Positions 44,221-46,034 of a DNA stretch of 64,000 bases are shown piece after piece. The notes beneath the pieces are model-generated. The model was not told where the DNA came from and made no database searches. It worked only from the letters and a program-made list of their open reading frames with translations. How positions within the stretch are numbered: position 1 is the stretch's first letter; each line of letters begins with the position of its first letter. This DNA comes from an uncultured delta proteobacterium (GTDB taxonomy: Bacteria > Desulfobacterota > Desulfobaccia > Desulfobaccales > 0-14-0-80-60-11): assembly GCA_963812015.1 (NCBI GenBank), contig CAWETI010000003.1, positions 768,001-832,000 of the forward strand, written 5' to 3'. A program made the translations under genes and the position numbers.

Positions 44221-44634
44221 CTTCACCCCTCCGACCGCGCCCTCCCCATCAAGGGGGAGGAGGGATAAGGAATATTCTGGGCGATGCGCACCGATAGAGG
44301 GCGGACACGCAGGTCCGTCCCTACGCCCCCCTCACCCCAGCCCTCTCCCCCCGAAAGCGGATGGAGAGGGGGTTAGAGGAACACAGGCTGGAAAGCCTAT
44401 GCTACCAAAAATAGCTGTGCCCAAGCTGAGTTTGGGCGGAAAGTGGCGTTCCCATGTGCAACTTGGGAACGAGGGGAGGGCGCCCCAACGGGAGGTGCCC
44501 AAGCTCAGCTTGGGCTAAAATTTGCGTTCCCAAGCAGGAGCTTGGGAACGAGAAACGAGGGCGGGAAAATATAGTTTGAAGGCTTCGGTCATACCGGCGG
44601 ATCCTCAGAAACCATGTTCCCCCTCACCCTAACC
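44221..44634. repeat. Mosaic cluster of REP-like palindromes from several families
   Basis: ccctccccatcaagggggagg, agggcggacacgcaggtccgtccctac, cccctcaccccagccctctccc, caggctggaaagcct, several cccaag...ttggg units, cccctcaccctaacc. Confidence 0.75.
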
Positions 44635-44649
44635 CTTGTATGTTAAAGG

Positions 44650-44845
44650 GAACCGGTACATAGTTTGGTCATTAAAGAACCAGGCCATCAGGAGCAGTAC
44701 TGCTCCTGATGGCGGCGTGGCAGGCCGTCCTAACCCTTGGTCCTTCAAGACCGCGGTGAGAGCGTGGCCGCCACGTCGCCCTGGCATTAACCCGAACAGT
44801 CGCCCGGGCTTTGAAGCCCGTATCTTGCAAGGACGGGAGGCCAAG
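44650..44845 (+). ncRNA. Bridge RNA (5' hairpin, target-binding loop, donor-binding loop); ends approximate
   Basis: 30-nt perfect hairpin 44684-44713; guides CCTAACCCT 44729-44737, GAGAG 44758-44762, ACAGTCGC 44796-44803, TGCAAG 44826-44831. Confidence 0.85.
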
Positions 44846-44852
44846 GCTTTTT

Positions 44853-45806
44853 ATGCACCCTGAATCCGTATTTGTCGGCATTGACGTCTCTAAGGACCAG
44901 TTAGACATCGCCATCCGGCCAGGAGAGGTCCGGTTCCGGGAGTCCAACAACGACTCCGGTATCCAGGCCCTCGTTGTCCGACTTTTGTCCCTTAAGCCCC
45001 AGCTCATCCTCCTGGAAGCCACCGGTGGCTATGAGATCCTGGCCGCCGCCGCCTTGCGGCAGGCTGACCTGCCGGCCCACATTATTAACCCTCGTCAGGT
45101 GCGAGACTTTGCCCGGTCCTCCGGCAGATTGGCCAAAACCGATAAGATCGACGCCGCGGTTCTGGCTCATTTTGCCGAGGCGCTGAAACCGTCCCTCCGA
45201 CCCTGGCCAGATGAGCATCAACAGGAATTGGCCGCCCTCATGAGCCGGCGCCGGCAACTGGTGGAGATGCTGGTCATGGAGAAAAATCGCCTATCCATGA
45301 CTTTCTCCCCACGGGTCCGCAGAAGCCTGCAAACCAACCTCCAATCCCTTAAAGAACAACTTAAGGAGTTGGAGCAAGATTTGGACGACTTCATCCGTCA
45401 AAGCCCCATCTGGCTGGAGAAGGATCAACTCCTCCAGAGCGTCCCGGGAGTCGGCCCCTTAACCTCCCAAAGCCTGTTAGCCTGGGTGCCGGAGTTAGGC
45501 ACCTTAAATCGCAAGAAGATCGCCGCCCTGGTGGGGTTGGCCCCCTTTAACCGCGATAGCGGTCAGATGCGGGGCAAGCGCACCGTTTGGGGTGGCCGGG
45601 CCCGGGTGCGGCCTCCCTTGTATATGGCTACGTTGGCCGCCTGCCGGGTCAATCCGGCCATCCGTGCCTTCTATCTCCGGTTGCTGGCAATGGGTAAGAG
45701 CAAGAAATTGGCTCTTACCGCCTGTATGCGTAAACTGTTAACCATCCTTAATGCCATACTTAAACAACAGCAACCCTGGTGCCCCCTTGCACCAGTTAAC
45801 CCTTGA
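44853..45806 (+). CDS. IS110-family recombinase (RuvC-like DEDD plus Tnp domain)
   Basis: [39 protein letters not shown]. Confidence 0.95.
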
Positions 45807-46034
45807 CATCTAACACAGTCGCTCTTCGGTTGCCCCTGCCTTTGATCCGGACTCATGGGTATCTCTTAAGCATCAAGGAGAATATATTCAATGCTAGTCT
45901 TACTATTCCCCCCTAAAAATGTTATCCGTAAAAGCATCCATTTTAGTTTGGAGAACTATGGGGAACTCCCTCGGTAACTCCTTCACCCGGACGAGGAGAG
46001 GTTATCTTTTTCGAAATGGCAGGAAAATCTGGTT

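Follow-up and report, generated by a model that had tools for sequence, protein, structure and literature searches.

A canonical IS621-like bridge-recombinase element in a Desulfobaccales genome and the sites taken by its copies

The window analysed here is a 64,000-nucleotide (64 kb) stretch of contig CAWETI010000003.1 (positions 768,001 to 832,000, forward strand) from an uncultured delta proteobacterium of the Desulfobaccales, an environmental bacterium that occurs in metagenomes from sediments and wetlands. At 44637-45823 it carries an insertion sequence (IS) of the IS110 group, 1187 bp long when one CT core is counted, which very probably works like IS621. The element consists of a 216-nt left end (LE) that encodes the bridge RNA, a gene for a 317-amino-acid recombinase, and a right end (RE) of 15 nt plus the core (17 nt). 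It is a canonical IS621-like bridge-recombinase element, belonging to a family that has already been described, and is no new kind of system. Its features are collected in Table 1.

The long non-coding LE, the short RE, the absence of terminal inverted repeats and a 2-nt core that occurs once in the empty site are all features of the IS110 group. The boundaries are confirmed because eight copies in the same genome share exactly this span and because unoccupied copies of the target, a repetitive extragenic palindromic (REP)-like repeat, read CCTGACC-CT-CTCCCC. An earlier note on this DNA had proposed the same boundaries, and these empty-site alleles, with their single CT, agree with it. All of the flank, end and core strings that it listed are present. 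The perfect 30-nt hairpin that it described at the 5' non-coding end was found as a palindrome at 44684-44713. Its target-loop string, CCTAACCCT, lies at 44628-44636 and 44729-44737, the sole two copies in the 64 kb, with GAGAG at 44758-44762; its donor-loop string, ACAGTCGC, likewise has its sole two copies in the window at 44796-44803 and 45815-45822, with TGCAAG at 44826-44831. The promoter that it expected on circularisation, TTGACA (45803-45808, overlapping the stop codon) joined to TATGTT (44639-44644), has a spacer of exactly 17 bp. The flank ttccccctcaccCTAACC at the left side of the window copy is also present at a second copy, L002.

Table 1. Features of the element and its immediate flanks, in window coordinates.
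Feature	Position	Strand	Remarks
Left target half (LT), CCTAACC	44628-44634	+	right part of the left arm of a REP-like repeat; 7/7 against the left target guide
Core dinucleotide CT, left copy	44635-44636	+	CT at both ends in 8/8 copies; single CT in empty sites
Left end (LE), 216 nt, non-coding	44637-44852	+	encodes the bridge RNA; begins with the right donor (RD) TGTAT (TGTATG from 44637)
-10 hexamer TATGTT of junction promoter	44639-44644	+	predicted to be functional only once RE and LE are joined
5' stem-loop, perfect 30-nt palindrome	44684-44713	+	matches its own reverse complement; 13 pairs and a 4-nt loop
Target-binding stem-loop (TBL)	44713-44778	+	outer stem 44713-21/44770-78 and 44724-26/44766-68; inner stem 44739-42/44749-52
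Left target guide (LTG), CCUAACC plus core CU	44729-44737	+	same sense as LT plus core; 9/9 in 3 copies, 8/9 in 5
Right target guide (RTG), GUGAG plus core complement AG	44756-44762	+	predicted ideal right side CT-CTCAC
Target-loop handshake base C	44763	+	complementary to donor position 7 (G)
Donor-binding stem-loop (DBL)	44791-44837	+	outer stem 44791-94/44834-37; inner stem 44805-09/44816-20
Left donor guide (LDG), ACAGUCG plus C	44796-44803	+	identical to RE 45815-22
Right donor guide (RDG), UGCAAG	44826-44831	+	pairs with CTTGTA, one G:T wobble
Donor-loop handshake base G	44832	+	complementary to target position 7 (C)
Recombinase gene, 317 aa	44853-45806	+	RuvC-like DEDD domain, coiled coil, Tnp domain with Ser
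-35 hexamer TTGACA	45803-45808	+	overlaps the TGA stop (45804-06); in relatives TTGACT/TTGACA keeps a constant distance to the tip of RE
Left donor (LD), ACAGTCG, tip of the right end	45815-45821	+	
Core dinucleotide CT, right copy	45822-45823	+	
Right flank CTTCG	45824-45828	+	not a REP right half; part of the intergenic spacer that separated a response-regulator gene, now next to copy L008, from a 343-aa gene (46035-47066)

The 317-residue protein matches the Pfam families DEDD_Tnp_IS110 (PF01548, 2.8e-25) and Transposase_20 (PF02371, 2.4e-18), and scores 235.8 bits, over a cut-off of 140, against the NCBIfam model NF033542, 'IS110 family RNA-guided transposase'. Residues 4-309 align with the IS621 transposase of known structure (8wt6; E 8.8e-37), and residues 2-309 with that of ISCro4 (9t56; E 1e-37), the best sequence match in the PDB. 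Residues D11, E55, D97, D100, S236 and G237 align opposite D11, E60, D102, D105, S241 and G242 of IS621, which make up its composite active site (Hiraizumi et al., PMC11208158). By alignment, therefore, the protein has the N-terminal RuvC-like DEDD domain and the C-terminal Tnp domain with a catalytic serine that mark the IS110 group.

The left end is predicted to be strongly structured. Folding of 44629-44860 gave -103.9 kcal/mol against -79.4 ± 4.8 for shuffled sequences (z = -5.1), and in the fold a 5' hairpin precedes two stem-loops, each interrupted by an internal loop; the strings that match flanks and ends lie on the loop strands. A search of species-representative genomes with a 14-protein alignment returned 80 homologue loci of 48-60% protein identity, mostly in Dehalococcoidia, Nitrospirota and other metagenome-assembled genomes (MAGs). 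Their ends are strikingly conserved, with LE reading CT-TGTATCTTGG and RE reading TTGACTTTCAAGACAGTTG-CT. The RNA core was aligned for 59 distinct sequences, L023 being left out as misaligned, and RNAalifold recovered both stem-loop modules from this alignment. Across the 59 sequences 96.0% of the paired cells can pair, compared with 36-44% when the partners are slid by 1-3 columns, and 17 of the 26 pairs show compensatory changes; the observed measures were reached by none of 500 shuffles. In the target stem-loop, compensatory changes are seen in 11 of the 12 outer-stem pairs and in all three inner-stem pairs. Three predicted pairs inside the donor loop showed no two-sided compensatory change (one is invariant and two vary on one side) and were excluded from the model. 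On the minus strand a T-rich run follows the 44684-44713 palindrome, which scores as terminator-like; besides its role as the 5' stem-loop, the palindrome might on that strand terminate transcripts that are antisense to the left end or read out of it.

A covariance model was then built from 58 homologues alone, with the window excluded. Run against the 64 kb, it gave a single match, at 44711-44842 on the plus strand (91.1 bits, E 5.1e-22), the next best having an E of 0.13. It matched at full length, with at least 76 bits, all eight of the genome's own copies and 74 of the 80 homologue loci.

Model-based alignment of the 82 full-length matches allowed the guides to be read against their own sites. 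Both ends were detectable in 77, giving 72 distinct insertions; L018 and L023 were set aside for weak or partial model matches, and L020, L033, L061, L083 and L092 for want of a detectable end. The RTG, taken as the 7 nt up to the conserved AG of the target loop, is the exact reverse complement of the core and five right-flank bases (7/7) in 40 of the 72 insertions and matches at 6/7 in 21, whereas 7/7 was reached by 0.8% of 4972 pairings between guides and flanks of different elements. LT plus core matches the 5' loop strand at 8 or more of nine positions in 23 of the 72, against 0.56% for the null. An 8-mer or a 9-mer present twice in 64 kb is not rare on its own, each being found in 15 of 100 shuffles; chance is excluded here by their position, on the 5' strands of two internal loops that follow one another, together with the covariation across the family.

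The donor guides and handshake bases follow the same pattern. The LDG ACAGUCGC accompanies the LD ACAGTCG (in the window, L041, L047 and L064), ACAGUUGC accompanies ACAGTTG, ACGGUUGC accompanies ACGGTTG and ACAGCUGC accompanies ACAGCTG, with few mismatches to this covariation (L048, L054, L087, L093). Most relatives combine an RDG of GCAAG with a left end of CTTGT, a few have ACAAG, with no wobble, and L057, L060 and L069 combine GUAAG with CTTAT. Handshake guides adjoining the RTG and RDG have been described as pairing with position 7 of the other duplex (PMC11208158). The donor-loop handshake base can pair with target position 7 in 72 of 72 insertions (65 G-C, 3 G-T, 3 A-T and 1 C-G), and the target-loop base is C facing a G at LD position 7 in all but four of the 77 loci (three A with T, one A with G). 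In L057, L060 and L069 a C-to-U change in the RDG goes with a G-to-A change in RD, and a C-to-A change of the target-loop handshake base goes with a G-to-T change at LD position 7. These three loci, all from Chloroflexota MAGs, have the left end CT-TATAT and the right end ACAGTTT-CT, and their LDG reads ACAGUUAC, with a mismatch at donor position 7. Elsewhere in the family the right flank of L056 begins with TGTATC, like the start of a left end, and those of L037, L046, L049, L054, L055 and L078, from different Dehalococcoidia MAGs, all begin with TGACA; such flanks may represent a shared repeat target or donor-like half-sites.

The joining of RE to LE also places promoter elements together. 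Of 60 distinct elements, 53 have the pattern TTGAnn-(16-18)-TAnnnT across the RE-LE junction, the spacer being 17 bp in 50, and no sigma-70-like promoter was found in the linear context at 44300-46100. The sigma-70 promoter in the circle that characterises the IS110 group is therefore present at the level of sequence. A subterminal inverted repeat surrounds the donor; it reads TAAC/GTTA in the window, whereas most relatives have CAAG/CTTG, and it is complementary at 4 or more of five positions in 35 of the 60. IS110-group elements are described as having a short (2-3 bp) subterminal inverted repeat (STIR) around a programmable donor (PMC11208160), and the repeat of the window element fits this short type.

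If the element follows the mechanism of IS621, it would be excised as a circle, and the joining of RE to LE would create the sigma-70 promoter TTGACA-17 bp-TATGTT. This promoter would drive a bridge RNA of about 190-200 nt, with the recombinase downstream. In the donor-binding loop, ACAGUCGC and UGCAAG would hold the joined ends ACAGTCG-CT-TGTAT, a tetramer of the recombinase (DEDD and Ser236) would exchange strands at the CT core, and the handshake bases C44763 and G44832 would pair with the partner duplex after the exchange.

The anatomy set out for the IS110 group in PMC11208160 comprises a 5' stem-loop, two internal loops, target and donor guides that include the core, a junction promoter and REP targets; bridge RNAs were predicted there for 85.7% of IS110-group elements. 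Compared with E. coli IS621, the window element has the same domain order and, by alignment, the same DEDD and Ser catalytic residues. It has the same long LE encoding a 5' stem-loop followed by a target-binding and then a donor-binding stem-loop, the same 9-nt LTG in the sense of LT plus core, an RTG complementary to the core and right target (RT), and the same CT core. Both also have handshake bases, a sigma-70 promoter formed at the junction and targets of the REP type. The donor of IS621, ...ACAGT..-CT-TGTAT, is also like that of the window element. The IS621 bridge-recombinase architecture claimed in the earlier note is accordingly upheld by the protein, by the RNA fold and covariance model, and by the family-wide matches of guides to flanks and ends.

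There are differences too. The protein is distant, with an alignment E of about 1e-37 for both IS621 and ISCro4, and the DNA of the element had no match in a distant blastn search of 5,426 E. coli genomes. The RTG has 7 nt (core plus 5) compared with 4 nt in IS621, as in 'some orthologues', for which Durrant et al. (PMC11208160) describe RTGs longer than that of IS621. The 5' stem-loop is a perfect 30-nt palindrome, and the target is a different REP-like repeat. Engineered bridge recombinases of the ISCro4/IS622 type share the architecture. The supplementary data of PMC11208160 include elements with the donor motif ACAGTCG-CT-TGTAT and others that target CCCTCACCCTAACC-CT-CTCCC repeats, and the exact LE, TBL and RE strings of the window were not found in the part of those supplements that was covered.

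The host genome (3.96 Mb, six contigs) contains eight full copies and one 66-bp 5' fragment. The span common to all eight runs from CT-TGTATG to ACAGTCG-CT, and the copies differ from one another at 0-5 bases over the compared span and at 0-3 inside the element, most differences falling in the flanks. The guide regions are identical in 8/8. All eight open reading frames (ORFs) are intact, six encoding the same protein, one a P254L variant and one a V41I/V42A variant. Contigs of run X1, possibly the source sample, have a depth of 52-111 over the element and of about 7 in the flanks, which agrees with about eight copies. In run X2 the depth is 6.8 over the element and about 7.7 in the left flank, and X2 may hold a strain with few copies. 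Joints 44324/44382 in X2 and 44809/45012 in X4 were each seen in single contigs, with sides under 30.

In nature the element targets REP-like hairpin repeats, ccccTCACCCTAACC-CT-CTCCCCCattGGGGGAGAGGGG, which take the form ccccTCACC-CTAACC-CT-CTCCCCC-att-GGGGGAGAGGGG at the flanks. Of the eight copies, seven have such a repeat on the left and six on the right, the right arm being a variant at L005 and not REP at the window copy (L001). LT plus core matches the LTG at 9/9 positions in three copies, all with CCTAACC: the window copy (RT CTTCG, core plus RT 4/7 against the RTG), L002 (CTCCC, 6/7) and L005 (CCTCC, 4/7). The match is 8/9 in the other five, where LT is CCTGACC in L003, L006 and L007, CCAAACC in L004 and ACTAACC in L008; in each of these RT is CTCCC and the match to the RTG is 6/7. 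From the LTG (CCUAACC plus CU) and the RTG (GUGAG plus AG), the ideal target is predicted to be CCTAACC-CT-CTCAC.

Unoccupied repeats of the forms CCTGACC-CT-CTCCCC and CCAAACC-CT-CTCCCC are present in the genome, a relaxed pattern giving 20 sites. No unoccupied CCTAACCCTCTC sites were found in this genome. Three CCTGACC sites are occupied and five unoccupied, and for CCAAACC sites the counts are one and 13. Site occupancy thus drops with guide mismatch, in small numbers. Two families of REP-like repeats share the core C[CT][TA][AG]ACC-CT-CTCCCC (examples are at G000:C2:853126, C3:44443 and C2:1238824), one reading ...cccctcaccCTGACC..cattGGGGGAGAGGGG and the other gggccgacggcccctgccccctctcCCAAACC..ccccaaccccc. 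The element inserts in both, more often in the first. One homologue, L064, comes from a Lacunisphaera sp. MAG of another phylum (54% protein identity) and is inserted at CCTAACC-CT-CTCCCCC, next to which lies a GGAGAGG hairpin. The guides that L064 itself carries read UCAACC-CU and GGGAGAG, with an RTG match of 7/7. Because L064 sits in almost the same target as the window element, this type of hairpin repeat is a recurrent target across phyla.

In Pseudomonas putida all insertions of ISPpu10 lie in copies of one intergenic repeat, with a GC-rich stem-loop adjoining the guide-matched site, and such a target stem-loop can add specificity (bioRxiv 10.64898/2026.03.19.712850). Most sites of the window element are similar, being hairpin repeats in which CTCCCCC-att-GGGGGAG lies directly 3' of the core. 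Two non-REP half-flanks suggest that the REP hairpin may not be strictly required.

These two half-flanks belong to the window copy and to L008 (G000:C2:1146474-1147670). The former has a REP left arm and a non-REP right flank, the latter a non-REP left flank and a REP right arm. The earlier note had reconstructed CCTAACC-CT-CTTCG as the empty target of the window copy; the flanks do read as it wrote them, but with a REP sequence on the left and a non-REP sequence on the right they probably never formed an ancestral site. To the left of L008 lies a response-regulator-like ORF and to the right of the window copy the 343-aa ORF at 46035-47066. The best homologues of these two genes are adjacent and divergent, 240-367 bp apart, in all four same-genus genomes searched; in a genome of the same family (G018) their best matches are on different contigs. 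Within that intergenic spacer the left flank of L008 and the right flank of the window copy are collinear, with about 98 nt between the matched parts against about 97 expected. The exact empty site, ACTAACC-CT-CTTCG, was not visible in the spacers of the four relatives, which are too diverged for this, while collinearity and spacing can be read. The left flank (43700-44634) showed no synteny with 30 relatives, its matches being to short repeated hairpin elements. In run X2, a 1336-nt contig of even depth links the left flank of the window copy, across the element, with CT-CCCCCATTG, which is the right half of the REP, and then runs into an adapter-like tail.

The window copy is most likely a recombinant between two IS copies, with a REP left flank and the flank of a second, non-REP insertion. 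The simplest reading is that the element first inserted twice, at CCTAACC-CT-CTCCC in a REP and at ACTAACC-CT-CTTCG in a promoter region, and that the two copies later recombined reciprocally. The second of these sites would match at 6/7 in the left half and at 2/5 beyond the core in the right half, which recalls the 'half-match' off-target insertions reported for IS621 (bioRxiv 10.64898/2026.08.31.748434). The rearrangement is possibly an inversion, if the copies lay inverted; contig orientation is arbitrary. Two points count against a recombinant origin: the X2 evidence comes from one contig with nine informative bases before the adapter-like tail, and the apparent rearrangement could be an assembly misjoin across identical 1.2-kb repeats.

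The principal alternative is that the window copy inserted directly into CCTAACC-CT-CTTCG and that its flanks were always contiguous. The flanks read exactly so, LT plus core matches the LTG at 9/9, and the CT of the right flank extends pairing with the RTG to 4 nt, which is enough for IS621 (PMC11208160). Against this, the left flank is a REP left arm cut at the insertion point, and L008 carries exactly the arm that is missing; the genes beyond the two non-REP flanks are neighbours in every same-genus genome searched, with the flanks collinear; and the X2 contig links the left flank through the element to a REP right arm. We consider direct insertion unlikely. A recombinant window copy also means that the flanks of a multi-copy IS need not be the two halves of one target.

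Somewhat less probable still is that the element, though a correct IS110 by sequence, is no longer mobile, being the fossil of a past burst or producing no bridge RNA in this host. One copy is truncated, the RTG finds no perfect match at any site, and no RNA, circle or new insertion was directly seen in the assembled contigs. On the other side, the eight copies are at most three bases apart inside the element, with every ORF intact and identical guides; the catalytic residues are present and the promoter halves are intact; and no perfect unoccupied target is left, with near-cognate sites partly filled. In addition, near-identical elements of 89-97% protein identity occur in many metagenome contigs. 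The element is intact and, judged by copy identity and site occupancy, recently active, and the eight near-identical copies fit the earlier note's description of it as 'intact, probably active'.

Several observations nevertheless weigh against the assignment of an IS621-like mode of action. Neither the RE-LE joint nor an IS-less joint was present in the assembled contigs of runs X1-X4, and Logan contigs cannot show rare junctions. Six of the 80 loci gave no full-length model match (none at all for L027, weak or partial matches for L018, L023, L038 and L078, and a match cut by the contig end for L034), and seven of 60 elements showed no junction promoter under the pattern used. The relatives are kin, and counts of cells overstate the number of independent events. 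In the relatives LT agrees with its guide less closely than RT does (mean 6.8 of 9 for LT), and the window element's own RTG is imperfect against every natural site, at best 6/7 and at 4/7 for the window copy and L005. A scan of 43500-47000 against Rfam 15, with E up to 1, gave no significant match (best E 0.53-0.74); its chance-level matches, sX15, mir-150 and isrK, lie far below the gathering scores and include no bridge-RNA family, and for this reason the family membership of the RNA rests on our own model.

The lack of an Rfam match, together with the ordinary frequency of each short repeat in shuffled sequence (15 of 100 shuffles give at least two copies), is what could be said for the structured left end being a mere 5' untranslated region or regulatory leader of the transposase gene, with its matches coincidental. 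That possibility is hardly credible, as the guides hold fixed positions and track their own flanks over 72 insertions, 7/7 in 40 against the 0.8% expected, and compensatory changes occur at the handshake, LDG and RDG positions alongside the strong covariation of the stems; the guide tally in practice refutes it. Elements of the IS1111 group or seekRNA type share the DEDD recombinase superfamily and RNA-guided site choice, but we all but dismiss membership in that type, because its guide RNA lies in the right end and its subterminal repeats span 7-17 bp (PMC11208160), whereas here the right end, core included, amounts to 17 nt after the stop, too little space for a structured RNA downstream of the ORF, and the left end to 216 nt, the structured RNA is upstream of the ORF and the repeat is about 4 bp.

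Taken jointly, the results would describe a recently active recombinase, distant from IS621 and ISCro4 and possibly orthogonal to them, with a 9-nt LTG and a 7-nt RTG, whose copies record mismatch-dependent occupancy, a non-REP half-match insertion and a chromosome rearrangement, most simply an inversion, by recombination between copies. We hold this combined picture tentatively, rating it slightly below an even chance. Should all three parts hold, the element would be a candidate new tool and would also illustrate, from nature, how elements with bridge RNAs come to insert at off-targets and reshape genomes. It adds a natural orthologue with exact boundaries, four guides, both handshake bases, a junction promoter, eight insertion sites and unoccupied near-cognate sites, and the guides of about 70 relatives are readable by the same approach. 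Such a record is of use when orthogonal recombinases are to be selected or the tolerance of mismatches is under study, and it leaves the known mechanism unchanged.

The 66-bp fragment of the 5' end, L009 (G000:C2:1263935-1264000; L009:1501-1566), lies behind a CCTAACC-CT site and ends inside the 5' hairpin at CATCAGG, and the sequence downstream is similar to that on the right of L005, as if a deletion had occurred at a short homology. Beside it is a 66-aa frame (L009:1619-1816) that we take to be like the C-terminus of a REP-associated tyrosine transposase; it had no match in Pfam.

In the window's left flank, 44300-44560 holds short hairpin repeats (gcccaagct..agcttgggc and gttcccaag..cttgggaac) that occur hundreds of times in 30 of 31 related genomes and form a separate family, unrelated to the IS target. 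Further left, the 293-aa ORF at 41701-42582 (G000:C3:809701-810582), which starts MDKHPSIFEILKKF...IRCGS, presumably encodes an IS1595-type transposase-like protein with an N-terminal zinc ribbon, and small genes occupy 42687-43952, between this ORF and the IS.

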